A DNA stretch of 56,135 bases, counting the filler, from Sphacelaria rigidula (taxonomy: Eukaryota): the NCBI GenBank assembly GCA_964200075.2. It is 7 parts of 7 records of this genome, joined end to end, with 100 filler letters (N's around TTAATTAATTAA, not from the genome) between each part and the next. Parts side by side here need not be neighbours in the genome. Positions count along the whole stretch, not along the records: positions 48,203 to 56,135 come from CAXNAA020012932.1; 6 more parts are not named here. One strand, written 5' to 3'. Of the stretch, positions 1-54,544 are shown piece by piece. Under the pieces are notes generated by a model. That model was not told the origin of the DNA and did no database searches. It was given only the letters and a program-made list of their open reading frames with translations. Within the stretch, counting starts at the first letter, position 1. The number at the start of each line of letters is the position of its first letter. Made by a program: the position numbers and the translations under genes.

Positions 1-3000
1 CCCCCATCGTTAGCCTGGTCTTATGACTATGGCATGCATGATCATGAGGACAGACCCCCCCCCTCCCCCCCATCGTAGCATGACTGGCAAACACCATGTT
101 TTTGGGAGTCCGGTCCCCGGACGGTCCCCGGAGATTGGGTTGCACAGTACGCTCCGTATATTTGGACTCCTACAGGAAAGAGACCCAAAAAATAAGAGTG
201 CAACCCCTATCGTAGCATTGCTCTGTGACAACTAATAAATGTATGTTACCTTTGCTACTCCGCGCGCATATGGTAACTAACACTGCTGGAAGCTTTCGAG
301 GTCACATCTAGTGAAAACACTCCTTGTACGTGAACACGTCGCTGCGATTGCTGTCGTTATCATTCGTCGTCTTTTTTTCTCCCTATGTGTGTGTTTGTGT
401 GTTTGTGTGTTTGTGTGTTTAAAATTCCGCGTGGGTTTGCTGTTATTTCTTGTTGTTGTTCTTGCTTTCCCCTTTTTCATTGCTTTGTACGTGCTTTCGT
501 CGCTGTGCAAAAACTGTGTCTGTAAATGTCGTCGGTGGTGCGTGAGCTCGTAGCGAGAAGGTTGTACCGTACTAATAATGTGACGAATAATTTTTTGACG
601 TTAGGTTACTTATGTCTGTAACGTTCCTCAGGAACGTTCCATGAGCCGTCATGACGGTCCTTCCGTTCGAGAAACAAACCCGGACCCCGTACACGCTTTC
701 GCACCTGCCAAGACTCTTGCCAGTTCACGATCGGGGTAGTAGCTTGCTAGCTCCATTGCGTCTCACCTCTTCTTGTACAGATTCTCCTGAGAGATAACTG
801 CCTCTTTACGGCAATTGGGTATGTTTGCTCAACACTATGCACGTACTGCCTCCCAAAACCAATGTCCCTTCCGCGAGAGCCAGTCTTGAGTGGACATGTA
901 GTGTCCACGGACGCAGTCGTTACGCCATATTAAAATCGTTTTTTTTGCAAACGTAGGCACGATCAGGTGCAGAGTACCTGGTCACTTTCGCGCCGAAAAA
1001 TAGAAAAGGTACAGGCTCCAGCGGCCGAAATTGTATATACGACCCAGGTACAGTATACCTGGTCACTTTCGCGTCGATAAAACGAAGATGAAGGCACAGG
1101 CTTTATTTAGCGGCCGAAACTGTGGTTCGGTTTTGTTTCATGGGCAAACGGCACGATTAGGTATACCTGATATCACGTCGCTTTTAGCAAGACTGAAACA
1201 AGTGTAGAGACTCCACACCAGCTCCTAAGGCAAGCAACAAATGAGTACGTTCCCCCCCCAGCTGGAGCGTAAAAGCACAGTCAGACTACAGGTGTAGCGC
1301 GAAAAAGAGTGGACACGTTCTAAAATCTGTTCTAACATGGTGCTCTTCCTTTCATGCCAACGTCAAGTGGTAATTGTGTACAGGTGTTGATGTCATAAGA
1401 ATAACCATGTAACATTTTCATGTCTCAAATAGTTGATCGCCGGTTCGGTTCGGCTGGATACGCTTCGGTTCGTCCTTGTCCGGTCCGGTCCGGTCCGGTC
1501 CGGTTCGGTTGGTCGGTAGATTGTATTTTATTATTTCATTTGTCTTTCATTTTTTTTTCTCGTGTCGTATTTGGTTCGAATTCTACCCTTTTCTTCGGTT
1601 TCATCAGCAATTATTTATTCTTGGCAAAATCAGCCCCAACCATTTCCCCCGAGCGCACCCTCACTCCAGTCAGATAGATCTCTCTGCCCCCGCCTCCCTC
1701 GCGTCCTCTAGCCAGCCCGCCGCTCTCTCCCGAACATAACGGCGCCCTCATCCCGTCTGCGCTCGTCCGAACCGATCGCGAGTTTTCCCCAGATGTACAG
1801 CACGACGTAGGGATGCATTTTCCTCGGCTGTTGTATTCTTAACGGCTTGCAGCTGCGAACGCATCCCGGGCCTATTCTTCCGTCCGCTGCGCTGTTTGCG
1901 GAGCTGAAGCAGTAGTAGCCCCTTCATGACCATTTTCCCCCCGCTCTACAGTATGGGGATTGTGCCGCGTCATTCCTCCGACGATTGATTTGTTGCCGCG
2001 CGCATTTTTCGCCAACGACTGCCTCGCCGTTTTGAATTCCTCCTCTCTCCCACGTTTCTTGCCGAGGTTTGCGCGGATTGTGGCCGCATGCCCACCGCCG
2101 CGTCTGCCACCGTGTGTGCCTGCTATAGCAACAGGTACAGCACACGCCACTCGCTGTATTTTGCTGCCATTTGTTCGGTGTTTTCCCCCCCTCTGCTGTT
2201 GTTTGTTCCATCATAAAACACGGGAGCGCGGCGGATGGGGGGGGGGGAGTGGTGGTGGGGGGAGTTGTACTCATTTACTCATGATCATGCATGCCAAAGT
2301 CATAATTTGATATATGTTATCACTGAAATGATGGACGGGGATTGGTGGAAGGCCTTCGAATGAAGAATAAAACAAGAACAACAAATAGAAACTATGCATT
2401 TCATGTGTGTGAATGTGTTTGAACTGTTTTTTCGCTTTTGGGGTGGGGTAGGGACCAACACGGCAGGGTGAACTTTTCGTCTCGCATCGGACCTGGGCAG
2501 CGCCTTCCACTGTTGGAGGTGCTCCTCGGGGCAAAAAAAGTGACTGGGCTGTTCGAGGAAATCACAACGACCACGGACAAGAATTCCCCTTTTCCTTTTT
2601 GTCCTGGGATGCTCCGCCCGAATACACTTCTTTCTACAATCCTATCTGTTTACGGGTTGTTCGCAGGCGCAAGCAATGCCCTCCCTGTTCACACCCTACA
2701 CCCTGTTGCTCACCATCCATACGCACCCGATAGCAGCGGCCTTGTCCTCCTGCTTTGAAGGCGAACCCTCTGAACCTGAAAAAACATATAATTTGAATAT
2801 AATTTGGTCTTACTGATGGCTTACTGATCTAACCGCGGGACGTGCCCTGAAATGGGCACTGCAGTGTGATGCATTGGAATTGGGAGCACCAAACGCAACA
2901 ATCGGCACTCGAATCGCACACGTAACCGTGGAGAACCGCCCGGATTAAACTTATCAATCGATGGAGTACGTCCTGGGCAACGCACTATCCCCAATTGATC

Positions 3001-3915
3001 CAAGGGAAAAAATAATCACAGCCACGAGGGGCTCGGGGAGAAACGTCGGGGTGCAGATCTGAATCGGTCGCGGAGTAATTTCACTTCAGTGCGTACGCAC
3101 GTGCAAATATGATACCCTCAGACATTTTCTGCTGAGGAAAGCCTCGCCGCTTGTGTACACAGCCGCTCAAGGAATCCAAGGTGAAAAGCATTGCGTGTAC
3201 TGGAACAGACGACATCATGGTGACCGAATAGTGCTCTCTCTTCATCTGTGGTGTTGATTGTATTGGTACCGCCATGTTCGCCGTGCCGCATCTACAGCCT
3301 CCGTCCGCTGCGACTTGAGCTTTGTACATTGGTAATACACCGACAACTGTCTCTCACAATCCACTCAACCCAGGGTCAGGCATATGTCGTATCGGCTTAC
3401 GTTTCACTTGGAAAATGAGTGCAAAACCCAAATGACCTAAACAGGGGGTCGGAGAGTTCAACTTTAGAGCCGGGTATTTGTGGGAAGAGGCGACCGTCCC
3501 CAGATATTCTGACTTGAAAAATGAACACAAGACATCATCCTGGCGATCGAGCGTCGCTGTTAGAGCGGGCGGCAAGAGTGACGATCTCTAAAGGAGTAAT
3601 CCGATACTCGACGATTCCCACAGAAGAAGGGAGAAATGCGGCGGGGGGCACGGAGAAGATAGCATTGTACTATACTGCGCTGCGCTGTACTGATTGTACT
3701 GTACTGCACGGTGCACTTCGGCTTTATCTATTTACACAGAGAGCAGCCACCTCATGATGGGTCAGTTGTGTTTGTAATGGCAGAATTATTTACTTCAAAA
3801 AAGAATACCCACCACAACCCAAATACATTTTCTGCAATTACACGCAGGAAGGAATAACGGTGTTGGAGAGTTTCGTGTAGTCTGATCCTTGCTGATATCC
3901 ATAGACGAACGGAAC

Positions 3916-4180
3916 CACACGTCGGACAGATCATGATCATGATCTGTCTGAAACAACTCATCAAACAAGACTCTCGAATCCGTTGGTTCAAAAACACAAA
4001 ATATGTGACCACGGAGTCAGAAAAGCAAGACCGCAACCTTTGCGCTGCTCGGCGTGCTCGGCGTCCGGCGCTGTAAGGAGTAAAAGTGGAAAAGGGGGGC
4101 CAAGTGATCCGGATCATGATCCGGATCAGTATACTGAGAAGAAGTATTTTTCAGACAGATCATGATCTGTCCGACGTATG
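3916..4180. mobile_element. hAT-like MITE
   Basis: TIR CACACGTCGGACAGATCATGATC; perfect 8-bp TSD AACGGAAC (3908-3915, 4181-4188). Confidence 0.85.
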
Positions 4181-4957
4181 AACGGAACGAACGCAACGGG
4201 TGGGAGAGAGAAGACAACGCTGTACTGTAATGTAAAGCATTCCACTGCTGTACTCTACTGTGCGTTTTCGATTGACTTTGTCTCAACCTATATAGAGTGG
4301 CACCCTCAGGGCTGGTCATCCGTGTTGCATTGTCACAGTTTCGACGTGAAAATGAACGATGAATAGACCGTACCGGCGATGCAATGCAGCACGGACATGT
4401 GCGTGTCATGGGTGCAGATGGCCTTCTACGCTTTTTTTCCCAACCGACCGGGCGGCCCATTCGCTTCTTCGCCGATCGACTGTGCGTGTTATTACCATCT
4501 CATTGTCTTTTGCGATTTCCATCAGGAAGATCCGGACACTTTTTGCAAACATTTCCTATATATTCAGGCCCCGGTTAGCACCTCTAACTGTCATGGACCT
4601 ATCGGACGTGATTTGCATATATAATATATACATACCGTATATATACCCCGGTACGTCCAAGTAGCTCTGTAGGTTCCGGCGCCGTGCTAGTAAAAGCCAA
4701 GATCTCATTGCCCTGGGTTGCATCCAGGGGGGTGGTATCCAAGGTGCGGGTGATGCGTAGCGTACTATAAGGTGGTGCTCCTTTATCTTCAGGTACTGTA
4801 CATTGTTGCTTCTGCGTGGGCTAGTGGCATGTTAAACCTCTATTGGGTGCTTCTACTGTTCGGTACGAAACGATACGCACGGTACTATGCGATACGGTAT
4901 GATCCGGTACGATACGGTAGATCCAGAAACCGTCACTGTACGCTACGGTGCGCTACG

Positions 4958-5218
4958 GACACTTTCTATGATAGCCGCCCCAAAAGAAGTGCATGGTTTG
5001 GGGCGGCAAAAATTCACGTAAATCGCAATGCCAAAAGCCGAGCACAACGAGAAGCTGGAAAAATTCCACGCTTGGGTTCGTTCTCGCCAATGTCGCCAAT
5101 ATGAGGCGTTTCATGCGGCCTGAATCCAAACACCAGGCGCTGTATGACCGTTTTTTTTTGTGACACTTTTGGGGTGTTTTTGTTTTTGTTTGGGGAGGGG
5201 GCTATCGTAGAAAGGGTC
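4958..5218. mobile_element. MITE-like element, TIR CTTTCTACGATAG(C)n; second copy about 21978-22347
   Basis: Inverted CTTTCTAYGATAGCC and GGCTATCGTAGAAAG pairs at both loci; analogous GCCGAGATAG(C)n pair at about 43701-43960. Confidence 0.6.
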
Positions 5219-5609
5219 TACGGTACGCTACGTTTGATCCAGAAATCGTACAGCAGATCTATTTGTGTTGTTTTTCCTTGTGCGGACTTTTCTTCTCCCT
5301 TTGATTATTTTATTTTACCTTGCGGGCACGTTCTTGTCGTGTGGGACAAAAAGAGCGTCTTTCTCGCCTGGGGTTTTATGGTTATCGAGTCGGGTCGGAG
5401 GTGATGCACGATGGGGTACCTTTCATATGCCTAACAACAAGAGAACACACGAAGCGAGTCATGAAGAGAGTTTGTGCTACCGACAGTTTCGAGAGAGAGA
5501 AATGCACCGCTTGAAACCGCCTTCTGCGCGTCTGCAGGGTCGGGTCAGCGTTTTGCTGTGACGTTGCTGCCGTGCCTGTATGGCTTTCGTCTTTTGTGTT
5601 GTTTTGTTC

Positions 5610-5697
5610 TGTGACGATTTATAGGCAACCGATTAGACTACCGTATAGTCAGCGCTGACTGTACGGTAGTCTAATCGGTTGCCTATAAATCGTCACA
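5610..5697. mobile_element. Solo 88-bp palindromic repeat of the same family
   Basis: Palindrome with 1 mismatch, TGT..ACA, 4-bp TSD GTTC (5606-5609, 5698-5701); a diverged partial copy starts contig 3 at 16070-16145. Confidence 0.85.
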
Positions 5698-6182
5698 GTT
5701 CTTCCGTAGCAGGCGTTTGTAGAGAACATGCGTTGACGTACCCACTGACTGACTGAACTACACACGCTTTGACTTACTCATCGCTTGACCTGAACCAACT
5801 AAACTAAGTCTTACCTGTCTCGTTGTTTCACGTATACCCATCTTTTCTATCTCGCTTTTTCTTGTCTTTACTTTGGACAACATCATCGATGGGGGCTGCA
5901 CAATGACAACAACACCAACAAACATAAGGAACTTACCCCAGTACATGAGACCAGGTCGCCGCGTGCCAGCCTAGACGCTACACACGTGAGTGCTTCCGTT
6001 CTTCCGGTCTATTCGCTTTTGTTCGTGATCTATTTCACATTGTGATTTTCCTCCGAGCTGTAATCGGTAGAAGTTGGCACAGTTTTCCTCTCCTCGATCA
6101 CGACTACTTGTGATTCTTCCTTCCATCCCAGGTCCCGCGCTTCAAGGTGCCGCCGGGCGCTTCCTCTTTCTCGCCCCCCCGC

Positions 6183-6295
6183 CTGGTCCGGCGGAAACCC
6201 GGCGTGCTCCGTCCCGGCTTTGTAGGGATGCGAGGTCAATGATCTTATGACTGTGGCATGCATGATCATGAGTACACCCCCCCCCCACCGCCCCA
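6183..6295 (+). mobile_element. Short retroposon (related 3' end GCATGCATGATCATGAGTAC(C)n); copies at 15-70(+), 2235-2305(-), 32170-32290(-), 41007-41107(+)
   Basis: Shared CCGGCGAAAACCCGGCGTACTCCGTCC..GGGATGCGAGGTCAATG..GACTATGGCATGCA..ATCATGAGTAC followed by C runs. Confidence 0.75.
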
Positions 6296-6566
6296 ACCGA
6301 CGCCTCCCGCGCGTGCTTGCGTGAAACGTTGAATAACACACCCTCGAGACGAGTTTCGCGACACACTGGTTGTCGAATATTGCGTGCGTGACAGAAGTAA
6401 GTGCATGTCGCCGAGGAAAGGAATAGGATGCTGTTGCTGTCGCCATAAAGGCTGCCGCATGCAACCGCTTCGGACGTTATAGCTTGTAAATTTGGCTTAT
6501 TTTTTTATAATTGTTTCGAGAATTCGTGTTGAACATTCCACACCTAGCCCACAAACATCACAATAG

Positions 6567-6890
6567 GATGGACTCGCCCCCGAGTACGCCCCCCCCTCCC
6601 CTCGCCGAAGGGATGGCGAGCTACAATTGGGTCGCCGCTATGCGGTTGAGATGGGGGTTGCGCTCGCTATTCTACCGGGCAAGGTGAGGGTGCTTGAAGG
6701 CTTGCTGGGGCCAATTTGCGAACGCTACGGTATTGGTCCGGAGTACCCGAGGAAATTATGGCAAAACGCCAAAGCCCAAGTCGGCGCTACCCAGGAGGTG
6801 GACCTTTGGAACAACACAAGGGCTGAACGCCCATCGCCCCTCACGCCAAGAAAGGTGGCGGCGCTGAAGAACGTTGACAAGAAATCGGTC
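6567..6890 (+). pseudogene. Possible N-terminal HTH fragment of a Tc1/mariner-superfamily transposase
   Basis: GELQLGRRYAVEMGVALAILPGKVRVLEGLLGPICERYGIGPEYPRKLWQNAK resembles a transposase N-terminal HTH; no catalytic part follows. Confidence 0.3.
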
Positions 6891-6988
6891 ACTTTTTTTG
6901 CCCCTGAGAAAGGGGCGAACAAATACGGCCATTTTGGAGCCGACTGATTTTTTGCCCGTTCGGCCGCATAGTGCAACAGCGAGCTGCA

Positions 6989-7020
<32 letters not shown>

Positions 7021-7323
7021 GCTTCTAACTCAAAAACTAGTCGAGAAATAGAAAAAAGACGTCGACAATCGGACACGGGGAAGGGCTCGTACGAACATAG
7101 CCCACTAGACTTATGCGACAGAGGAAGTATAATACCATCATCCGGTTGCCGTCTGAAACTACTTCGAGTATTACATAATGCAGAATAGCCAGGTAATCTG
7201 CAAGCAATTGCCTGTTCGGTTCGACTTTCAACATCAGCTCATCGCGATGGCAGTTGATGATACTTAGTGCTCATTTTTTTTTTTCTCATTCCATTTATAC
7301 TATTCTATCAATGAGTATTTTAG

Positions 7324-7587
7324 ATGTCTGGCGGTGGCCTCATCCGAGGTAAGGTCACGGGAAAAGTGGTGGAGCGAGTCTTCGGCGACGTACTGCTCAA
7401 GACGCTCGACGATTTCCAGCGCAATCTTCTTGAGAGGCGGAAGTTCTCCCCCAAGGCGGGCACTGCGGGCTCCACCGCGAACAGAAGCAGTGGCGATGGC
7501 AACGGCGAAGACGACGACTGCGGTGATGATAGTGATGACTACCTGGAGGTACTGTGCGGCACGCAAGATTCCCCTGGGAAGCTGCAG
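7324..7587 (+). CDS. Probable internal exon of an unidentified protein
   Basis: TTTTAG acceptor, 88 GC3-rich open codons (..VVERVFGDVLLKTLDDFQRNLLERR..DDDCGDDSDDYLEVLCGTQDSPGKLQ), CAG|GTGTGT donor; no recognised domain. Confidence 0.5.
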
Positions 7588-7604
7588 GTGTGTGTGTGTG
7601 TGTG

Positions 7605-7800
7605 TGTGACATACTCCAATGCGTGTTTCATAGTTCTGTATCTGTCATATTCCAGTGTGGGCCATTCACCAGCGTGTGAGAGCTGTACTCCGATGTGTGG
7701 GTCACACTACGGTGCGTCTGTCATACTCCGATGTGTGGGTCACATTCCCATGTGTATGTCATACTCCAATTTATGTGTCATATTCCAATGCGCGTGTTTT
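7605..7800 (+). repeat. Minisatellite (GTCATAYTCCRATGTGT) following a (GT)n microsatellite
   Basis: Roughly 8 diverged 18-26 bp units. Other simple repeats: (CCGGT)n 1440-1515, (TA)n 6989-7020, (CA)n 44119-44154, poly-C 31996-32035. Confidence 0.75.
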
Positions 7801-7935
7801 CCATACACCAGTCAAGGGGCCTTACAGACTGGAAAACGGTTTATACCCCCCCCCTCCCCCCCCTCAAATGCGAGACGTGAACAAAGGTGGCATGAAATCG
7901 TTTGATGCACTAGACAGTAGGGAGAAAACGATGGC

Positions 7936-8259: not shown

Positions 8260-8876
8260 ATCGGCTGTTATGCATGCTGACTACCTTTCACGACCGGACG
8301 CCACCAACTTGGTCGCAGGCCGCGGGGTTGCTATGCAGGCTAGTGGACGGAATGATGGCAGTGAAATAAATCAAGCAACGTGCTACCACTGCGGAAAGCA
8401 AGGTCACGTTAGGAGAACTTGCCCCGCCCGAAGTGCGACCCGAGCACTGACAGGAGGAGAGGGTCACGACGGGGGAAACAATGGGAATGTAGGCAAGTGG
8501 TGCTCTTTCCACAGGTCAACAACCCACAGCGAAGAAGAGCGCCGTTCCTTGCAACAGCGCAACCAGCAAACAGCCAATTTCGCACAATGATCAGGGTATC
8601 CACCAGCCACCGGTACAAGGGGGCACCCTCCCGCCGTCTCCTTTAATGCCCTAGGAGCGCCTAAAGCGAACCATCCCCAAGCGGACAACCTCTGGCCTTT
8701 CGCTCCAACGAACAAACCCGTTGCTTCTTCTGACAACAGCGGCCTCTTCGGCGCCTTCGAAGGAGCCGATGGAGAGGAGGCCGAGGGTCCGGGGTTCTGG
8801 CGCAGAGCTCGCAACCTACTACGGGGAATCAGGGAGACACTTTCTCCACTAGTGCGCGCGCTGGCCGTGATAGCCG
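8260..8876 (+). mobile_element. Older (host) copia element, gag part, interrupted by the inner element
   Basis: CYHCGKQGHVRRTC knuckle plus KWCSFHRSTTHS motif; frame continues past TGA 8588-8590 to the TSD. Confidence 0.85.
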
Positions 8877-9131
8877 TACTCCTTGGCTCAGGCACAGGGT
8901 AATGGTTCCAGATATTTTATTGAAGAGCACCCAAGTTCTACTATAACTTGGGAGAGTGCTGATGAGATTGTGAGTAGATGAAAGAGAATGAACAAAGGTG
9001 GCGGACTGCTCCGCTGCTCACAGCCGTACTGTACAACATGTGCACACACTTGACTGTCGGTACTCGTACGTCACCCCGACCCCCGGTTCTACGTAGATCC
9101 AGCATTACTGGGTATCTGAATCACTCGAACA
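8877..9131 (-). repeat. 3' LTR of inner copia element
   Basis: Matches the 5' LTR at 253/255 positions; preceded by the polypurine tract; ends GGAGTA next to the TSD. Confidence 0.93.
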
Positions 9132-9499
9132 CTCCCCCTGATCGGATACCTCAGCACTCAAAGGTCAAAAAGCAAATCAAGGAGAAAACTCGGCCTTCCG
9201 AGCAAAAACCCCATTTCACACAAACTCCACCGCTTGTGCTCAAAACAAACAGCCCTTTTTCGCAGACGCCCAGGCCAGGGCACCTGCACTCAACAACGGG
9301 AAACGCCCTACAAGCCCATTCCCCACAAAGTAGCGTGAGCGGCTTCACCCGATGTAAGTGCAGATGGATTACGGAAACCATGACCTGAAATATCTAGAGC
9401 TGGCAAATCGAAAGACACACACAAAACAACAGATGTGCCTACTTGCTGTCCCCAGCGTTCACCAAGGCGCGACGGTGCCTCTTGAACAGCTTGAATGAG

Positions 9500-12400
9500 T
9501 CTTTGTAACGATATCAGCGTGTTGCCACTCCGAATCCACATGAACGATCCTTACTGCTCCCGTCCTAACTAAGTCCCTAATAAAGTGCCACCTCACATCG
9601 ATGTGCTTACTTCGACCTGAGCTGAGAGGGTTGTCGGCTAGAGCTTTAGCCCCCTCATTGTATTCATAGAGAACCATACCGTACTCTACTTGTCGTCCCG
9701 GCACGACCTTTGATGGTAGGAAAGACAGTACCGACCTGACAAACATGCATTCGTTCGCCCCTTCTGCCATAGCTACGTTCTCGGCTTCGGTGGTCGACAG
9801 GGTAACGCAGTGTTGTGTTCGACTAGCACTTGATACTGCTATCCCCGCGTACATGATAGCTACACCGGAAACTGACCGCCGGTCTGTATCTTTCTTGGCG
9901 TAATCAGCGTCGAAATGGACTGAGAGCCTACTCTCCCCTGAGCTAAAAGTCAGACCGTAGTTTTTGGTCGTGTTGAGGTACGGCAGAACTTTCAACACCC
10001 CTCGCCAGTGTCTTTCACATGGGTCATGTGATTGTCGGGCCAGGTCTCGGGCTGCATTTGCTATGTCAGGCCTGGTTACCCCAGCCAACCACACATCAAG
10101 CCTCCCACGGCACTCCGGTATGGTCTATCTAAAGCCTTGTCTCCTTGCTTCACCGATCCTAAGTCTGCAGACACTGAGGCGGGAATATCAGAAAATTCCG
10201 TAACCTCGAAACGCTTCAGCACGGTGTCGACAAAGGTCGTCTGATTCACGTACATGGTACCTCTTTTCCAATTCCTATCTATGGCACACCCCGTATACCA
10301 CTTGATTTCACCTAAGTTGTTCGTCGGGAATCTATCGTTGAGGATATTACATACCCTCTTCACTCTTTTCGTTTCTCCCCCAATTAGGATGTCGTCCACA
10401 TACACAACAAGTATGACACACACATCCCCCCTTTCCTCCAGGCCGTACACACACGGGTCAGCCTTTCTTTGCGACATCACTACATCCTCCATCAGTGTTT
10501 TGTTCAGGAGGAGGGACCATTGCCTCCCTGCTTGTTTTACGCCGTATATAGATTTTTCTAGCCTAACCGTGCTACCTGTCAAGGGGCCACACCCTTCTGG
10601 GAGCTTCATGAACACGGTCGTGTCCATTTTGGCTCGTACAAAAGCCTGGGTAACGTCGAAGTGATATAGTGGCCATCCTCTTTGTACTGCCACGGCCATG
10701 ACTAATTGTATTGATGTCATGGCCGGGGTGGCTGCAAACGTCTCAAAATAGTCTACTGCGAATCTCTGGCCAAAGCCACGTGCCAATAATCTAGCTTTCG
10801 CTTTAGTTACAGTACCATTAGCGTCGGCTTTTCAAGTGAACACCCATTTGGTTGTGATATTGTTTACTCCTTTTGGAATTTCTCTTTTTGAGAATGTACC
10901 TGCGCTTTCATGCTCATTCAGTTCTGCACGCATGGCATTCAACCATACTCCCTTGTATTCCGACTTTTCTATGTCTTCTGCTGTTACGGGAGGAGTTTCC
11001 ACGTCTCTCACGTGCGGACCGATGGGGGAACGCAAACCAAAACTGGGCTCCTCCTCTGTCCCATTTTCGGCCGAAAAACAAAAATGCTCCTGCTCCGCAA
11101 AGATCTCTTCGATCAGCATGGCCGCGCTGCCTCCCACCTCTGGTCCGGCTGCTGCAGTGAGCAGCTCCGTCATTCTGCACTTATCCTCTGCCATTCCATA
11201 CAGCACAGTCTCCGCTTGAGCCTTCGCCTGGACCCTCGCCATCGCGCGGGAAAACAAATCGTTTCTTTCCCACGCCAGCATTCTCTCCAGTTCTTCTGCC
11301 GCCGAAGCTAGCTCGTTTTGGTCGGCTGCCGCTCTCGCCGCACTGCGCGTGCGACCTGCCATTTGTGGAGGCAGAGATAATTCATCGTCGAGTGCAAGAC
11401 GGCGTAGCTCCGTCCTTGGGATTTCGGAAGCTCCACCGCCCCCCCCGTCGTTGCGCTTGGGGGTGTCTACGGTTGTCGGCGTTGTGGCTGTCGGCGTTGG
11501 CGGCGACGATGTGGCTGTCGGCGTTCGCGGCGGTGATGTAGCTGCCGGCGGCGATGTGGCTGGCGGCGGCGATGTGCCTGTCGGCGTCGGTGGCGGTGAT
11601 GTAGCTGCCGGCGGCGATGTGGCTGACGGCGGCGGTGTGGAATTAGCGGCGGCGATGTTGGCGGCCGGCGGTGATCCCCCGTCATCAATGAGATGTCGGA
11701 CAGGGTTGCGTAAAATCCCGCGCCCCCCCCGCTTCTGCAAGGAGGCGGCGAGGTCATCTCACCCCCCCCGCCAATAGCGGGGCTCTGTTGTGCCGTGTCT
11801 GCGTCCAGCTCTGGGTTGGGGAGCAAGAACGACACGTGCCGTGAACCGCGGGGTAAAGCATGCGCCACCGGAGTTTTCCGTTCCGCGGACTTGCTGCCGG
11901 CCATCCCTCCCTCGATCTCGTCATCCCTCGCTCCGTCGGGCGTCGGGATCGCTTGCTGTGGGGCGGGGAGAGGAGTAGGGGGACATATGCCCATGTTACA
12001 TGCCTGGTCGTAATAGTTTGTCCTGTTTCCGTCATCACTCTCGTACCATCGCGCTGGTCCTGGGGCTGGGATAAGGTACCAGCATCTCTGAGCTTTTCGT
12101 TGTAACTTGTCTGTCCTCTGAGCCCTACAAAATCCTGGCTTCAGAAAAGGAAGAGGCTTGTTTTCCGGTGGTACTCCGTGCCACATTCCGTGTGGCGTCT
12201 TGTTTCCCGGGTTAGCCGAGGTTGCAGTACAGTTCAAAGCATGACATGCCCAGTTAGCTTGTTCCGCCCACAGATTCTTGCTAGTTGGGATATTCTGGTT
12301 CGGGTATATCTCCGATGCCTGAATTTTGGCTGCAAGGCCGGCCGACTCTATGAAGTCAATTGCCCGCTCCGCTACGCCGTTGGACTGTGGGGAGTCAGCA

Positions 12401-14843
12401 GTTATTTTCTCTTGTTTTATTTTCTCTCTATCACATAGCTCCTCGAACGCCCCCTCCGAAAACTCACCTCCACCATCCCTGCGGACCTTCTCGACTTTTC
12501 GCGGATGGATTTCTGCGATGTATTTACTAAAGTACTGTACGTACTCGTCCTTTGTGCGCAGAGGAAACAATCTGGTGTGTCGCGAGCAATCATCGCGTAC
12601 TATCATCATGTACGACTTTCCCCACCGAGATCTAACTGGTTTTGGGCCTGTGAGATCAACAAACACTCTGGAAGCTGGCTCAACTGCTCGTGTATGGGTC
12701 GATCTTAGGATGGGCTGCCGCAGTCCTTTTCCTTCCGAGCATCCTCGGCACGGTCTCAACTCGCCGCGCAGCTCCACTCCGAGCTGCTTGGCAGTCCGCC
12801 GGAGCAGGTCCTCGTGAACATGCGCGTGTTTGGAATGGATTTCATTTATGTCTTCAACTTGGGGGTTCGGAAGTTTCCCCGGGGCAATCACAGCGCATTC
12901 TGACGCATGCTTGTCATGACCATTCGGAGAGATGCGATGGACGTACATTATCAGTTGTCTGTGCTGACGGGGGATTTTCAGGGTATTGCCTGACTTCAAC
13001 TCAACCCGGAAGCCATTACTAGATCCAATGTAGGTGTGACCCGCGTTAGACATCGCGGTCAGTGAGAACAGATGGTGACGGACACAAGGTGCGTGGTTTG
13101 CATTTTTCACATGCAAGACCATATCGCGTCCGTAAGATCGTAAATATAGAGCCAAGTTTCTTCTTCCTACGATCGGGTAGGTACCACCGCCCGCACACCG
13201 TAGTACCCTTCCGCTGCATTTCCTATAGTCCGTCATCTTACTTGAAGCAGGAGAAAAGTGCGAAGTGGCCCCCGTGTCAAGTACCCACGGTTCGCCCCCA
13301 TCTGACTGCTCTACATCCCCCTTCACAGTTGCAAACACATACTCGTCTACGTTGATTTCGTCCACCGTCATGTCGAGGCTAGTGAACGCTTCTGCATCAG
13401 CATCCGGACAGACGGAGTCGTCGTCCACCACGTCTTCCGCCACGCCCATCACAATCGCCGCGTCCTCCACAGTGCTCTGACAGTCAATCAAACTATGTCC
13501 TGTCTTCCCGCACCTAACACAACGCCTGTCTGGACAGTCTCTCGCCCGATGTGTGGTCATCTTCTGACAAACGTGGCACCTCCACGTCGTCGCAGCCCCC
13601 GACTGGTTCGTTGACTATGAAGCCGGCGACGGGTTGTTTTTGCCCTGCCCCCCGTCACCTGCGCGACCTGGGTTCTGGGTCTTTCCCGGCTTACCTTTCC
13701 GGTGTGACCCGTTAGGTTTGCCGGGATGGACCTTGACAGCAAGGGCCCGGTCACTCGGGAAAGCCTTCGTCCCCTTGTCGAGTTCCTGCTTGAAAAGTGC
13801 CGATTCGAAACGTTTTCAAACCGATGTCACTACGACTTCCCTCGTGAGTGGACCTTCGCGCTCCTCCAACGCCTGTTTATGGTAGTTATACTCCCAAGGA
13901 AGCGCATTGACAAATTTGAGGAGGGTTTGCGCCTCCGTCAGGACGATGTTGGTGTAGTGTGATTGTAGTTCTCTAGCCACCTCTTCCATCTCGATTCTTT
14001 TTTGAACAGAATCATCGCGAACTCCAATCTTCACGTGATCATACTTCTCTAGAAGAGCTAATCTAGCTCCGTTGGTCTTGAGGCTGTAGAAATCGTTTAA
14101 CTCGCGCCACACGGCTGCTGGAGACGGAATTCGGAACAAAACATCCCGGTCCCGCTTATGTCGAGACTCGCCACCGACATTTGCCTCGCTCTCACGTTTG
14201 CAGCTACAGTGCCCTTTCCGTGTCTTGCTTCAAGATAACTTAAGGATATCGCCTTGTTTCCCACCTTCACATCGCATGCCCTATTTTCTGACATAGTTAA
14301 CACCCAATCAACTGCTTCACTTCTTGCGAACATAATTAGTTCGTGACTGTAGTGGTTGAACTCTGAACCCTTCCCAGAGACCTTAGGTACAGTTGCCTTG
14401 AAAACCGGTATCCCAGAAATATTTTGGACACTTTGTCGGTCGTGACCGAACATTGCGACGGACTCACTTGCGGGGTCTACACCCCTTGCTCCGTCGCTTG
14501 CTGTCCAGTGGTCGCTCCCGCTCGGAGCTCCCTGCTCTCCCTCTCGGCTACGTCTTCGGCCTTGAGGTATGCTTTGGTTGGCTGCGCTGTCAGCCCGGTG
14601 TTGTTGTGTTGCTTGATCCTCTTTGCTTTCGACAACGCCACTCCACCTCGCGCCTCCGGATTCTCGACCTTCGATGCCATCTACCCTACCCTGTATTACA
14701 GTCTGTGTAGATTGTACATCTCTAACCATCTCTGTCAGTGTGCTCAACTGACCCCTGAACAGACTCGTCATACTTTCAAGCTGACTCGTGAGCCCGTCTA
14801 ATCTTTCTTCTGAAGACGGAGCGTTACCATCGTTCCTAGCCAT
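9500..14843 (-). pseudogene. Copia gag-pol polyprotein, disrupted by several stops and frameshifts
   Basis: Zn knuckles CHVCQKMTTHRARDC and CVRCGKTGHSLIDC; protease WVLDTGATSHF; GAG-pre-integrase H..H..CRGC; integrase VFVDLTGP, RRDGGGEF, QSNGVAER; RT HFDVTQAF, KSIYGVKQAGRQW, VYVDDILI; RNase H DADYA..DRRSVSG, RSKHIDVRWHFIRD. Split across at least 7 ORF pieces. Confidence 0.95.
11470..11670 (-). repeat. Coding minisatellite (Pro/Thr/Ala-rich, PPAATSPP units) in the IN-RT spacer
   Basis: Tandem GGCGGCGATGTGGCT/GTAGCT variants translating to SATSPPAATSPPPTPTGTSPPPATSPPAATSPP. Confidence 0.85.
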
Positions 14844-14870
14844 ACTTGTCCAATCGATTGATCACTAGTG

Positions 14871-15125
14871 TATTCCTTGGCTCAGGCACAGGGTAATGGT
14901 TCCAGATATTTTATTGAAGAGCACCCAAGTTCTACTATAACTTGGGAGAGTGCTGATGAGATTGTGAGTAGATGAAAGAGAATGAACAAAGGTGGCGGAC
15001 TGCTCCGCTGCTCTCAGCCGTACTGTACAACATGTGCACACACTTGACTGTCGGTACTCGTACGTCACCCCGACCCCCGGTTCTACGTAGATCCAGCATT
15101 ACTGGGTATCTGAATCACTCGAACA
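14871..15125 (-). repeat. 5' LTR of inner copia element
   Basis: On the minus strand starts TGTTCGAG and ends GGAATA; gag ATG lies 28 nt downstream at 14843. Confidence 0.93.
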
Positions 15126-15845: not shown

Positions 15846-16464
15846 CCTTACCCCGACGGGAGAGCCACCACTTCGGATACACCCATTTTCACTTGGTGAG
15901 AGGCATCCTACGATAGGGGGGGGGTATTTGGTTGCCCGAAAAAAGAGGCTCATAAGTGTGTCAAACATCNNNNNNNNNNNNNNNNNNNNNNNNNNNNNNN
16001 NNNNNNNNNNNNNTTAATTAATTAANNNNNNNNNNNNNNNNNNNNNNNNNNNNNNNNNNNNNNNNNNNNACTGATAAAGTCAGCGCTGACTTGTCAGTAG
16101 TCTAGTTGGTTGTCTCTTAAACCGTCACAAAAGTTAGTCGTCACAGATCTAACGTCATTTTTTCAGACATTTTTTTTTCATAACCGTGGAGTGTGAATGA
16201 TTGCACACGACATCAACGCGTAATAGGTGGGTTATTTGGGGGGTATGAAAACGGAGGGAAATAACAAATACAGGCCACCTGACCAATATGCTACCGTACG
16301 TATGAGAAACGGGATGGCGTCACTCTGCACTTCGTGAATATTTGAAGATTTTCAAATTAGCGTTGTTGTGTCAAACGTTTCACAGCTAAGCCTGACATCG
16401 TATGAATAGGTATGGTCAAGTGTTCTACTGGTTCATGACCTGTGTCGCTGCATTCTGAAGAATG

Positions 16465-48090: not shown

Positions 48091-49654
48091 CCCTCGTTCA
48101 TCNNNNNNNNNNNNNNNNNNNNNNNNNNNNNNNNNNNNNNNNNNNNTTAATTAATTAANNNNNNNNNNNNNNNNNNNNNNNNNNNNNNNNNNNNNNNNNN
48201 NNTACGTCGTTGTTTAACTGGCCTGCACTGCCTTGCGGGCGGGCATGCTGGTTGACGGAGATCGGGTTGCTGTGCGTGCCTCCGGCTTGTGGTGCCGAGG
48301 CTCGGCGTGGTTCCCTTCCTGCGGTCCTTCCTTCTTTTGCCCCTGCCGATGCTCGAGCTCCTGCTGTGCTGTGGGGGTGTTGGCCTTGGCTTTGCGAAGC
48401 TGCTCCTCCCGCTGCTGCTGCTGCTGCTGCTCCCGATGTTGGTGTGTTGTCCATTGTAAAATCGATCAAGTGCCAGGGACTACTGTACTACTGAGACTGC
48501 TGGCGTGTCGCTGCCTGTTCAACTGGTCTCGAGTGATACTGTCTGCTTCTTCGGTGCTCTTGCACCAGACCAGTCTCGCCCGCTTGAAGCAACTCTGCGG
48601 CGTTTGCGCCTTGGACACGCGATCCCTTATATCTTATATCAACTTCGGCATACGCCAGAGTACATCCCTTATAACTCATCATCCGCCAACACAAACCTCG
48701 TATTCATACTGAATACACCCAGATCCACTGTGCTTGAGGTACTGTATATATCTCAAACCCGAGAAAGACGGTTGAATATACTGGGAACCTCCAGTCTGAG
48801 ACACCTCACCTGAGAGGGGACACCCCAATGAACCACAGAGGACCTATCAAAGCGGTCGAAGTTTCAATCGTCTGAAAACGAAGATCTTGAGCTTTTTTTC
48901 TATATGATGCTTGTCACGGCAAACATAAATCGAATCATGCACAAAAGTGGTGCCTGACTGATGGAGTGCTCACCTGTCAAACGTCCTATCCTTCAATCCA
49001 ATCCGCCTTTGGCGATTTTAGTGACTGTATGAGGATGTCTACTAAAGCATATTGGAGGGCAAAGTTCACATCGGAACCTGGTGAAGGCAGACCCTGTTGA
49101 TGGGAGAGATTATTTAGACTTCGAACTAGTGAACGTTCGCTGGTTCGAGGTTCAAACGCCCGCTCTCTGAACAAAAAGTAAAATGGTACAGCTTCACGCT
49201 GCTAACAACCGCCCTGGCGATAAATATAGTGAAAATGAGGGTCTTATTGGCCTCATTTTCATCCATTTTCATCCACATTCATCTCCACTGATTGGTAAAA
49301 ATGGATGAAAAGTATTAAAGTGAGAGTAAAAGTCAGTGTTCCGCCAAGAACAAAATGTAAACATAGATACGGATTTCGCGTACCAGAGCCATCGTATGAA
49401 ATACCAGCTTAGAGGATCCCCAAAGTAGGTATAATCCACACGCATCCACTTTGTATAGCTATACGTAGCGCATATGCCACGCTAACTCTGCACGTGTAGA
49501 AGCACGACATGGTACTGCCCTGCACGGTATTGTACAGTCCAGTATACAGCACCAAACCGCGTGATGTATTGCCATCAAAGTACAGTGTAAACAGCGAGCA
49601 GAATTTGTCGGGTTTTGAATCGAGAAAAATACTTTGGTTTCAACTTCGTAGACC

Positions 49655-50128
49655 TGTGACGATTTACAGGCAACCGATTAGATCACCGTATAGTCAGCGC
49701 TGACTGTACGGTAGTCTGATCGGTTGCCCATAAATCGTCACAAACGTTAGTCGTGGGGGTTCGATCCCCGTCACTTTCACTCCGAGGAGAGCGACTCCCC
49801 TTGCCAGCACTGTTCAACTGTTGGCGCTCACGGTATCGGTCTAATGTTGCCACACGTATCCATTCGGAGTTACTCGTCTCCCCCACTCATTTCAGAGTGT
49901 GTGCACTGGGGTCCCTCTCCGGGATTGGACTCTCCCCCATCACCCTCTGTTTTTTACCGCAGGTGAAGTTTTCCTCTTTTCGAAGAAAGTGCGTCCGACG
50001 GGAATCGAACCAGTGGCTAACTTTTGTGACGACTTCCAAGTGTGACGATTCAAAGACAACCGCTTAGGCTACCGTGAAGTCAGCGCTGACTGTACGGTAG
50101 TCTGAGCGGTTGCCTATGAATCGTCACA
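49655..50128. mobile_element. 474-bp non-autonomous element with palindromic 88-bp terminal repeats
   Basis: Terminal palindromes 49655-49742 and 50041-50128 centred on AGCGCT, TGT..ACA ends, 4-bp TSD GACC (49651-49654, 50129-50132). Confidence 0.85.
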
Positions 50129-51149
50129 GACCATGGACTACGGGGTTTTCAGAACCTGTATGTATACTTGACCGAGATATAATCCCATTGCCATACCCAC
50201 CAGCTAAAGCTGTACTGCACGGCTGTGGGAACATACACTCGCTATCAGTGTACGGGATTCGAATATGGCGAAGGCTGTGAAAAAATTCAAAGGTAGCTCG
50301 AGTAGGGTAATAAGCAGAGGTTACACAGTAGTATGTAGTAGTCAAACCACTTGCTTCTGCTGTAGACAGAAAGGCAACGGAGACTAAAATGGTGTTTGGG
50401 ACGCTTCACTTCGGCCGAACAAAATCGAGGCAGTCTCTTTTGCAGAGTTCTGAGGAAATGAAGAAAAGCTGGGTAAGCTTGGGAGAGTGATTGCAAGGGC
50501 AATAGGAACCACCGATTACAAACATGCTCAATCCTGGAAGAATAACCCCGCTACTGGTAACGCGGTAGCCTTGTCAGTTCTTTATCTTGGATCAACTGCA
50601 AACTTGCACACAAAATATGTTTCAGCTTACGTGGTCTATATACTCTGCTAGAGTGTCCTTCATTGACAAACCATGGCAACACGCCTACTCCAGCAATATC
50701 TTACTTGAAGCGTCATTCAAACAGGTGAGCTATAAATCAACACAAGAGAGGTACTCTTCGTGAAAAGGATACTCATGAAGCGGTCTTACATGGTTCGTTG
50801 TTTCGTTGAACCGTAATGGATTGTACCGCTATCTTTAGTTGCAACGGCTTCATTCAAACGCAATGAATATAGACTGTATCGTCTACATTTTTGCAACATT
50901 ATAATGAGATGTTTTCTACCCCCTCCTCCCACCTCCACACGAAATTTTCACCACAATCGACAATGACTACGAGAACGATGTGGTACAGAGGAGTACGTAG
51001 TACGTCGAGTACCGGATGGTACGCACAGCACCGGCACCACCTCTAATGACGGTACTTGCAACACCTCTGTAGAGAGTGTAGACAACACCGCTATAAAGGT
51101 TAAGTGCAACCAACAGAATACGCCGAGACAGCAATGAGCAGGCAACCGC

Positions 51150-51810
51150 CAAGTGCTGTGTTGGATAAGAATGCACGAGAATAATCCCGTTTCAAACGCA
51201 GCATGACTGCGAACAGTCGAACAACCCTTCACAGCAACAACTGCCTCTGGCTCTAGCTTGAGACGCATCTGTTGTATGACATCAACGGAATATCTCTCAA
51301 CAGACTGTACATCACCCTTTTCGTCAGTGTTCCATATGTGGTCGGTTGCTGGCTTCTCCTTGTCCGCGTAGTGCTGTAAGGCCGCATAAAAACTCCCACC
51401 TGCGATCTTCCTCGTCAGCCACCACCCTGTCAGCCTCGTCGATGTGGCTGCTGCGCTCCGCTAGCCGCTGGTACCGCCGAAGGAACGAATCGAGCCATTT
51501 CCGATTTGGGCCTTCTGCCGGGTCCCATGGCACCGGTCGGCGGGTACGCCCCTGTGTCAGATCATCTCTGTTCAAGCCCAGTTGACGAGCTGCAACAAAG
51601 TTCAGCGTAGCTTCGATGGAATTTGTTCCCTGCGTCGACAGCACGGTACGCGAGCCAACCTCGCCAGCTTTGCCCACGCTGCCGCTGACACTCTTGGACA
51701 GCGAAGCAACGACGATATCAGAGGTCTTTGCAGCAGCACGGGAGGTCATTCGACCACTGCGCACCGCTTCTATGGCCTTTGCTGCACGTTCTAGGTCCGC
51801 CCTTACTCTC
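51150..51810 (-). pseudogene. pogo/Fot1-like DDE transposase remnant
   Basis: psq-like HTH (AIEAVRSGRMTSRAAAK), CENP-B-like GPNRKWLDSFLRRY, then after a frameshift DHIWNTDEKG (first catalytic D, about 51310-51345) and VVAVKG; degenerate downstream. Confidence 0.75.
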
Positions 51811-53542
51811 TGCACGCTTGGGAGCCAATCGACCAAAAGCTGATATTGGAGAAAGACATACACCCGCTCATTCGTGTGCTGTGGGATGCTGTTTTCTGAC
51901 GCTTTAGGTATGTACAGAAGCTCAATCAAAAGCGCTGTGCTCTTGTGCACACACAGCAAGAAACAGAATGGAAATCAAACAACTTTTATGCTAACTGGTA
52001 CTGTGCCTGAATAGGGACATTTACTTTATGCCATTGATAGCCCTGGTGAATAGGTTGATGACGTGTAGCCGTAAGCACACGACATTGTTACAGGAAGCAC
52101 ACACATGAACAATGAAGATTAGATCAAGTTGGAGTGAATCGTCGAACTCACTCGTAGTCAACTACTAGCTCTCAATCTGGGGATAGAGTCGTTCAATGCC
52201 CCCGTGGTCAAGATCTCTAAACGCGAAACAGTGAAGAGCTGGGCGGATGGCCGTCGACGTGGTGGCGTCAGTGAAATTGAGTACTCTGAGTGCCTCTCCG
52301 CCCCCGTCAGCTGCAGTTAGAAGCGGGAATGCTTGGGGTTTCCCTCCGCGTAGAGTACAACACTGGCTCTTTGTTGCAGTGAGATACTGTATGATTTTGA
52401 GTAGTATCAACTTGAGGCTAAATTTTCGGATTCTCACAAGCAACCAGATGCGATAGCTTGCACAAGATAACAAGAGGTTCGCGATTGTAAAAAGCTGGCG
52501 AAGAGATGAAGCTTAACGCGAAACTGAAGTTGATGAGTTCATGTGATACATGGTATCCAAGACATGACTACTCATGACGAACTCGCGGGATTATCGCGAC
52601 CGCGTTCCGCGTGGAGTATACCACCAGTATAGGCTGTAGCTTATACTTGAACGTTTGTTGCAAATCTCAATATCACCCCACTACTCCGTCTACTATCGAT
52701 ACAGTGCCGGCCCGCACTTAGGAACCTCCTATTTTGAGCGAGGCTCACTTCTTGGAGGCTTCCCCAACCCTAGCACCAGTTCTTATTTGCCAAGTTATTA
52801 TATCGTCGTCCAGTTTTCCTCCAGAAATGGGGTTCTTGTTCTTATTTCAACACCGATTGCTCTGTTATTGGTTTGCGTATCACATGACGACGTACTTTGA
52901 TGGCTCTCAACTGCACTTGGCGGAGTGCTCAACATGAGAAACACTGCTGTTTTTGTTTGGTACAAAAAAACACCAAGGCATGGAGGAACTGCTGTCAACC
53001 TTCTCTGTGCACAAGGGTGACGTTGGGGGTGCGTACCCTTCCCGCTCTACTGACGCTCTGTATAGACATGGAACATTTTGGCGTGGTGAGGGGTGATATA
53101 GGGACGCCTCTTCTCTTGAGGAGATACAAGTCCATACGACACGAGATACAAGTCCATACGACACGAAGTTGGAGCATATGTGCCTTGATGCCAACCCCCC
53201 TACATAATCAAGAGTGTGTGGGACCGGCGAGGGCGGCGGAAACACGACAGCGAGGAACAGCAGCAGTCTTGAACGCCCGTACCACGGCACCAGCGCAACA
53301 TCTAATGTAGACGGTACAGTTAGTAGTGCCCAGGGTCAGTACAACACACGCTACAGTAAATACAAGATTTAATTTCTACAGTACTGTCGCAGCTTGCATG
53401 ACTATCGTGCTCTCCTGTCTGTATTGAAGCATGCCGCGGTGCGGTACTGTCTGTATGTTGACCATGTACAAAAGTAGCGGGGTCGGCTGCCTGACAAGCG
53501 TATATGTGATGATGTGAACGGCTGCTGCTCTTTTGCCACTAG

Positions 53543-54481
<939 letters not shown>

Positions 54482-54544
54482 TGAGTTCACGACTGTTGAT
54501 CGCACTATGTAGAGGTATGATCGAGGCGCCGTATATAGTTCCCC

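Follow-up and report, generated by a model that had tools for sequence, protein, structure and literature searches.

A short repeated element of the brown alga Sphacelaria rigidula carries terminal repeats that are themselves spacer-free palindromes, and it is probably a non-autonomous mini-retroelement, transcribed by RNA polymerase III (Pol III) and inserted by an integrase of long terminal repeat (LTR) elements, of a kind resembling TRIMs (miniature retrotransposons bounded by terminal repeats) with palindromic LTRs. The element occupies positions 49655-50128 of a stretch of 56,135 nucleotides from assembly GCA_964200075.2, hereafter the window. It is a confirmed mobile insertion in another dispersed repeat, and the group to which it belongs is likewise confirmed as real, multi-copy and composed of several families. 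The assembly is built from short reads (244 Mb in 27,214 contigs), and the window combines several contigs, positions 1-7935 mapping to one and the element sitting on another, with uncertain long-range adjacency.

Architecture and insertion site

The focal element consists of two 88-bp palindromes flanking an internal part of about 290 bp. The palindrome arms are 86% complementary and meet without a spacer at the centre AGCGCT, and the folding z-scores of the two palindromes (-12.5 and -10.4) were equalled by none of 200 shuffles; aligned directly with each other, the palindromes match at 86%, and aligned in inverted orientation at 82%. The original prediction, made from the sequence alone, had proposed 88-bp palindromic ends that are direct and inverted repeats at once, TGT..ACA termini, a duplicated GACC in the flanks, and A-box- and B-box-like motifs reading inward from both ends, all of which were found in place, as follows.

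49651-49654: left target-site duplication, GACC, present as a single GACC in 5/5 empty paralogues
49655-49742: left palindromic terminal repeat of family A, 88 bp, TGT..ACA, centre at 49698/49699
49712-49723 (+): A-box-like motif within the left palindrome's inner arm; the head of a family A copy scores as more tRNA-like than 199/200 shuffles
49743-50024 (+): internal region, mutually inverted over ~30 bp at its two ends, with the first 11 nt identical in the consensus; no primer-binding site (PBS) or polypurine tract (PPT)
49758-49768 (+): B-box-like motif at a tRNA-like distance from the A-box
49781-49812 (+): part of a block near-identical in families A and B, holding a copy-like version of the central octamer
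49950-49955 (+): T6 run, a putative stop for a plus-strand Pol III transcript
50000-50011 (-): B-box-like motif facing inward from the right end
50025-50040 (+): 16-bp insertion private to the focal copy, starting like the first 8 nt of the palindrome
50041-50128: right palindromic terminal repeat, 88 bp, with two mirrored private changes, centre at 50084/50085
50060-50071 (-): A-box-like motif within the right palindrome's inner arm
50129-50132: right target-site duplication, GACC
5610-5697: family A palindrome standing alone, flanked by a 4-bp duplication (GTTC) of its own
16075-16141 (+): partial family B palindrome and start of its internal part, truncated by an assembly gap

Taken as a whole, the element has a terminal inverted repeat (TIR) of ~118 bp, which extends ~30 bp beyond each palindrome into the internal part. 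Relative to the family A consensus, the focal copy has, besides its 16-bp insertion, a 9-bp internal deletion; one-arm partial tandem duplications like that insertion are seen at the ends of four other copies (L137, L230, L233, L082). No open reading frame (ORF) of at least 150 aa overlaps the element, ARAGORN found no tRNA in the window, and Rfam returned for the focal copy solely sub-threshold matches to microRNA (miRNA) hairpins.

The repeat that the element interrupts (49520-49654 and 50129-50260; 40 matches scored) is itself dispersed, and its five best fetched paralogues are all uninterrupted, lacking the element and carrying a single GACC. Because these empty paralogues read through that single GACC, the focal element was inserted here and its 4-bp duplication is genuine.

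Six families built on one plan

A search with the focal element gave 383 candidates, and the 40 that were scored include many full-length family A copies at 80-84% identity. The majority consensus of 36 family A palindromes is a perfect 88-bp palindrome, and the consensus element (13 copies) is 470 bp long; being under 1 kb, non-coding and bounded by two terminal direct repeats with TG..CA ends, family A has the size and termini of TRIM and Helenus elements. The central 16-bp core of the palindrome has 278 exact matches in the genome and its reversed control none, and 40 listed core sites that were fetched comprise 3 of family A, 20 of family B and 17 others. Perfectly palindromic consensuses were likewise obtained for the palindromes of families B (90 bp, from 19 copies) and C (78 bp, from 35), with arm identities of 36/45 between A and B and 26/44 between A and C. 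Families D, E and F are built alike, bringing the families with a common core to at least six (A-F). In all six, TTT directly precedes the TGT on one side of the repeat and AAA directly follows the ACA on the other, and an inward A-box lies in the arm and a B-box beyond it, within the internal part; the palindromes begin with TGTG in A and B and with TGTT in C-F.

Solo and paired copies, which the original prediction had suggested tabulating, both occur in family A, together with trimers and internally deleted copies. The solos have duplications of their own (5610-5697 of the window, L043, L127), the trimers L009 and L011 hold two internal parts in the same direction with the duplication outside, and the internally deleted copies are many and keep both ends. 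A young F copy (L230) has identical subfamily changes in all four arms. Between A and B (the B consensus being drawn from 3 copies), blocks of 92-100% identity in the internal part are interspersed with blocks of ~50%, an alternation that suggests recombination or strong constraint.

An internal motif that in alignment A1 seemed common to all families was rejected as such: it is significant among C, E and F only (z 4.1-7.7), and the profile built from it finds no match in A, B or D and does not detect the A/B block at 49781-49812, while RNAalifold gives 3 pairs only. Rfam found no ribozyme and no signal recognition particle match on nine D/E/F loci. A scan with the core pattern gave 0 matches in viral contigs and 1 partial match in metagenome contigs, and one metagenome contig opens with the core and an A-box (L166:1-45). 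Some copies share their flanks and appear to be passive passengers inside larger repeats (L226-L229; L051, L058), and in two family D copies (L237, L238) the outer flanks form an inverted repeat in place of a direct duplication. At L050:4255-4345 the core is followed by a tRNA-like head with no mirrored arm and no Rfam tRNA match, possibly a SINE-like precursor or a rearranged copy.

Target-site duplications and the integrase

Duplications were counted only for insertions with both outer ends recognised. In families A and B they are exact at 4 bp in 20/33 insertions and at one mismatch or fewer in 28/33, with 5 bp in 0/33, and the consistent 4-bp duplication that the original prediction expected of other copies is borne out in these two families. 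Family C has exact 5-bp duplications in 4/8 and, allowing up to one mismatch, in 7/8, with none of 4 bp. Among 20 E and F loci inspected by eye, a 5-bp duplication is exact in L225 and L232, lies next to a damaged end in L223 and has one mismatch in L220 and L233, and L218 is a G-run. Both lengths lie within the 4-6 bp of TRIM and Helenus elements. The target follows RNNY in 18 of the 20 exact A/B duplications (p ~2e-9 against 0.25), and CCGG, CCGT and TATA are each found in none of the 20.

These lengths have counterparts among ordinary LTR elements. In the curated Ectocarpus table, the Gypsy rows with a stated length all give 4 bp (17/17) and the Copia rows all give 5 bp (23/23) (PMC12477816). 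In S. rigidula itself, one Gypsy element (378-bp LTRs, PBS, PPT) has TGTG..CACA ends and the 4-bp duplication TAAA, and the Copia element of the window starts with TGTT and has a 5-bp duplication, each being a single example; around the Gypsy integrases, LTR pairs yielded one clean pair in 10 contigs. Families A and B (TGTG, 4 bp) match Gypsy, and C, E and F (TGTT, 5 bp) match Copia, which supports insertion by LTR-element integrases.

Integrase genes were sought through their zinc finger, with 1829 candidates, of which 150 were scored and the best 30 loci examined (54/103 ORFs submitted). Reverse transcriptase (RT) or RNase H lies upstream in 28 of these best 30 loci, a biased sample of the 150 scored. 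One contig carries two equal-score zinc-finger matches in inverted orientation (G000:C1768, 402-575 and 14827-15000).

tRNA-like heads and a possible replication route

Reading inward from the palindrome centre, the heads of the elements were scored against the nuclear tRNAs of the genome and compared with 200 shuffles. Nine of 12 representative heads were reached by no more than 5/200 shuffles, the two of family A by 1/200 and 0/200; those above 5/200 are the left head of C and both heads of the E copy used. Such heads are retained where the rest of a family's internal part cannot be aligned to A, and one D head, beginning 3 nt past the centre, matches the Rfam model of tRNA over its full length, scoring 21.8 bits where the cut-off is 29. 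Descent from a single ancestral tRNA isotype was rejected, as the best matches differ between families. A strict B-box is present on the left in 10/13 A, 1/3 B and 0/17 C-F copies and on the right in 10/13, 1/3 and 12/17, left and right having been set by eye for D. By the usual Pol III box consensus and terminator rules, the A- and B-boxes are inferred to act as a Pol III promoter, and transcription may be one-directional, families C and F each having just one clearly tRNA-like head. The promoter would be split, with its A-box in the LTR and its B-box outside, in the internal part, unlike the boxes of Helenus, which are contained in the LTR.

The 20-nt stretches before the LTRs finish in TTT at 11/12 ends tested, and the internal part has mirrored ends, exactly so over the first 11 nt in consensus A. 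Given these mirrored ends, an RNA running from one centre to the far T4 could pair its 3' end directly behind the first repeat, and on this a proposal of self-priming is based. Pol III would start at or just before one palindrome centre, by means of the inner-arm A-box and the internal B-box, and the RNA would terminate at the T4 formed at the far junction of internal part and LTR. Its 3' end would fold back onto the 11-12 nt, led by A4, that immediately follow the first LTR and to which it is complementary, and would prime reverse transcription at the LTR edge, in place of a tRNA and PBS; the cDNA end would then fold back at the conserved self-complementary core and restore the palindrome, making an R-region jump unnecessary, and the product would be integrated by the integrase of a Gypsy element in A/B and of a Copia element in C/E/F. 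An RNA intermediate, the Pol III start and the integrase step are probable parts of this route; its middle steps (terminator end, self-priming and fold-back) are put forward tentatively. It is similarly no better than possible that the element parasitizes LTR machinery while dispensing with tRNA primer, PPT and R-region transfer, priming itself through oligo-U and switching between Gypsy and Copia. Tf1/sushi LTR retrotransposons also prime reverse transcription with their own RNA, Tf1 by a cleaved 5' end placed on the PBS; the proposal shares self-priming with them and differs in that an uncleaved 3' terminator end would be the primer.

Correction and collapse of the palindromes

After insertion the palindromes self-correct and collapse. 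Counts of substitutions that are mirrored inside a single palindrome exceed expectation in three families: 32 (5.6 expected) in A, from 72 copies; 10 (2.2 expected) in B, from 19; and 24 (6.5 expected) in C, from 35. These counts were reached by 0/5000 permutations, and in family A about a fifth of all substitutions belong to mirrored pairs. The mirrored changes are mostly private and not present in the partner repeat; four-arm copying was rejected as their source because they are not common to both repeats. Template-switch repair is a palindrome-correcting mechanism, and its action in place, in the chromosome, is the simplest reading of these changes. Since palindromes repair themselves in place, their perfection is no proof of a replication mechanism. 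No A-to-G strand bias was found (45 A>G against 43 T>C).

Variants common to both repeats of one family A copy are shared directly 5 times against 1.75 expected (p=0.036) and in inverted orientation 2 times against 2.1 expected (15 copies). Loss of repeats was followed at 151 junctions, a sample biased to repeat-bearing loci, where 114 retain at least 25 bp, 27 a remnant, and 10 were flagged as having none; in 9 of these 10, repeat sequence is visible by eye, and one is unclear. Clean excision of a palindrome was thus not seen among the 151 junctions, that one unclear case excepted, and lost repeats leave remnants.

Relation to known elements

The closest known class is Helenus/TRIMp3 (Kojima 2024, PMC10886601), whose members are non-coding, shorter than 1 kb, and have terminal direct repeats, tRNA-derived A/B boxes and solo LTRs, with families whose 4- or 5-bp duplications are credited to Gypsy or Copia. 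As described there, Helenus elements have both a PBS and a PPT, carry the tRNA piece inside the LTR, and are reported from fungi, animals and one plant; none of the terms palindrome, inverted, brown alga and self-priming is used in that paper (PMC10886601). The present element differs in its spacer-free palindromic LTR, a promoter lying across LTR and internal part, inward heads at both ends, and the lack of PBS and PPT. It is kept out of TRIM/Helenus because PBS, PPT and an LTR-contained promoter were all sought and none was found. The original prediction had pointed to Cassandra; what holds of that likeness is a Pol III promoter tied to the LTR, and Helenus/TRIMp3 takes its place as the nearest known class. 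Cassandra and Ajax TRIMs begin transcription within the 5' LTR as well and, as described in the same paper, differ in a 5S rRNA origin, non-palindromic LTRs and a PBS/PPT-type internal part (PMC10886601).

Among DNA transposons, Ginger1 and Ginger2/Tdd (Bao et al. 2010, PMC2836005) have in common with the present group their TGT..ACA ends, TIRs 40-270 bp long, duplications of 4 bp (5 bp in Tdd) and non-autonomous derivatives. Their targets are CCGG/CCGT or RTATAY, in contrast to RNNY in A/B, the accessible part of that account names no direct repeats, solo ends or trimers (PMC2836005), and no such transposase was found here among the integrase loci examined. KolobokP (Kojima and Bao 2022, PMC9587614) resembles the present group in terminal direct repeats with inverted ends of their own, in solos, and in (repeat-internal)n-repeat multimers; it differs in repeats of 450-660 bp, TIRs of at most 18 bp, a transposase with a nuclease, and excision of single repeats, none of which was seen here (PMC9587614).

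The element had not been recognised as a described one in the original prediction, and neither this architecture nor palindromic LTRs are described in the literature searched, Repbase and Dfam lying outside the comparison; nor do the curated Ectocarpus rows hold a family with these termini, length and duplication, the uncurated REPET libraries lying outside it too (PMC12477816).

Weighing the explanations

An RNA route is favoured because duplication length splits by family, the heads and TTT/AAA junctions persist, solos and trimers occur, the repeats of A copies share variants directly, and no clean palindrome loss was seen, and also because 28/30 integrase loci have RT or RNase H and the alternation of A/B blocks fits recombination. 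Several observations weigh against it. No PBS was found, the longest tRNA complement being 6-8 nt (62 sequences, both orientations, six families), and no PPT, the 20 nt before either LTR holding 7-10 purines on either strand. Long copies with integrase or RT ORFs, for which the original prediction had proposed to look, did not turn up; no autonomous partner was found among the integrase loci examined, and 50 Gypsy integrase loci show neither similarity to A, B or C nor the core motif or a palindrome nearby. The lone Gypsy duplication, TAAA, does not fit RNNY. The mirrored changes are limited to one palindrome of a pair, as expected of in-place repair and not of four-arm copying, and direct sharing of variants is weak in A, where it could be gene conversion, and not significant in B (4 copies) or C (6 copies). 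In A, B, D and F the minus strand has no T-runs, as would be expected by chance, and in C and E it carries internal T4-T7 runs; strand asymmetry of T-runs, not being significant, was rejected as proof of a single transcription direction. Ginger2/Tdd elements, moreover, also have TGT ends with 4- or 5-bp duplications (PMC2836005).

That last point bears on a DNA-based account, the main rival and rather unlikely on present evidence, in which the element is a composite-like MITE (a miniature transposable element with inverted repeats): each palindrome would be a minimal transposon of two 44-bp TIRs, served by a Ginger2/Tdd- or IS481EU-type transposase, and two palindromes flanking a captured tRNA- or SINE-derived piece would move jointly or alone, with multimers arising by unequal crossover, a route suggested for KolobokP. 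Such an account suits the ~118-bp TIR of the whole element, the many internally deleted copies with both ends and the absence of PBS and PPT; in-place repair would explain the palindromes without RT, and KolobokP attains an equal spectrum of monomers, solos and multimers by a DNA mechanism (PMC9587614). It sits poorly with the RNNY target (18/20), unlike the CCGG/CCGT of Ginger1 or the RTATAY of Ginger2 (PMC2836005), and with the lack of clean excision at the 151 junctions, and it gives no reason for a tRNA head or TTT/AAA junctions to persist across six families. Nor was a Ginger-type gene found among the best 30 of the 150 scored integrase loci, and the curated Ectocarpus table has no autonomous Ginger, its only row of the kind being a non-autonomous entry marked 'possible Ginger?' (PMC12477816). 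The original prediction had placed the element between a TRIM and a Ginger MITE; its non-autonomous nature and retroviral-type ends stand, and instead of lying halfway it leans to the TRIM side, given the 5-bp duplications of sister families, a target of RNNY in place of CCGG or RTATAY, and no clean excision seen.

An ordinary TRIM or Helenus element, using the standard LTR pathway with a PBS that went unrecognised (a half-tRNA or another small RNA) and a palindrome that arose as a side effect of old fold-back and stays perfect through in-place repair, is less probable again. Helenus has the same split between Gypsy with 4 bp and Copia with 5 bp, fungal Helenus primes by an anticodon loop (PMC10886601), the tRNA set compared was incomplete (its nuclear part comprising 24 sequences of 13 isotypes), and in-place palindrome repair is demonstrated. 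Against this stand a best tRNA complement of 6-8 nt, the 7-10 purines in 20 nt before the LTRs, a B-box outside the LTR, and a PBS position taken by sequence mirrored at the other end. Assembly artefact, finally, is a highly improbable source of the palindromes or mirrored changes: the assembly is indeed a short-read one in 27,214 contigs, and 10/32 mirrored changes of family A fall in palindromes without unmirrored changes, but 22/32 are in palindromes that also bear unmirrored ones, the right focal palindrome recurs identically in one public contig, possibly from the source sample, and the duplications and empty sites are exact.

If the RNA route is true, this is an LTR-type element without both standard priming signals, which would imply an alternative start and completion of LTR reverse transcription, and one architecture with two duplication lengths would imply helper switching between Gypsy and Copia. 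Under any mechanism, hundreds of dispersed spacer-free palindromes serve as a natural assay of how palindromes repair themselves in a eukaryotic genome. In brown algae they may, in addition, confound miRNA calling that relies on palindromes, as practised in PMC12867755.

Other features of the window

A Copia element lies at 8876-15125 (-), with 256-bp LTRs that are 99% identical, the duplication CGGCT and broken frames; the first six bases of its LTR are the same as those of family D palindromes. An N gap with a TTAATTAATTAA linker occupies 15970-16070. At 50948-51974 (-) two open frames resemble by eye a decayed pogo/Tc1-type transposase, with no Pfam match, and at 53543-54484 (+) lies a catalase-peroxidase exon whose nearest proteins by identity are brown-algal, with 84-89% identity, over about half of the query, to Scytosiphon, Ectocarpus and Sphacelaria proteins.
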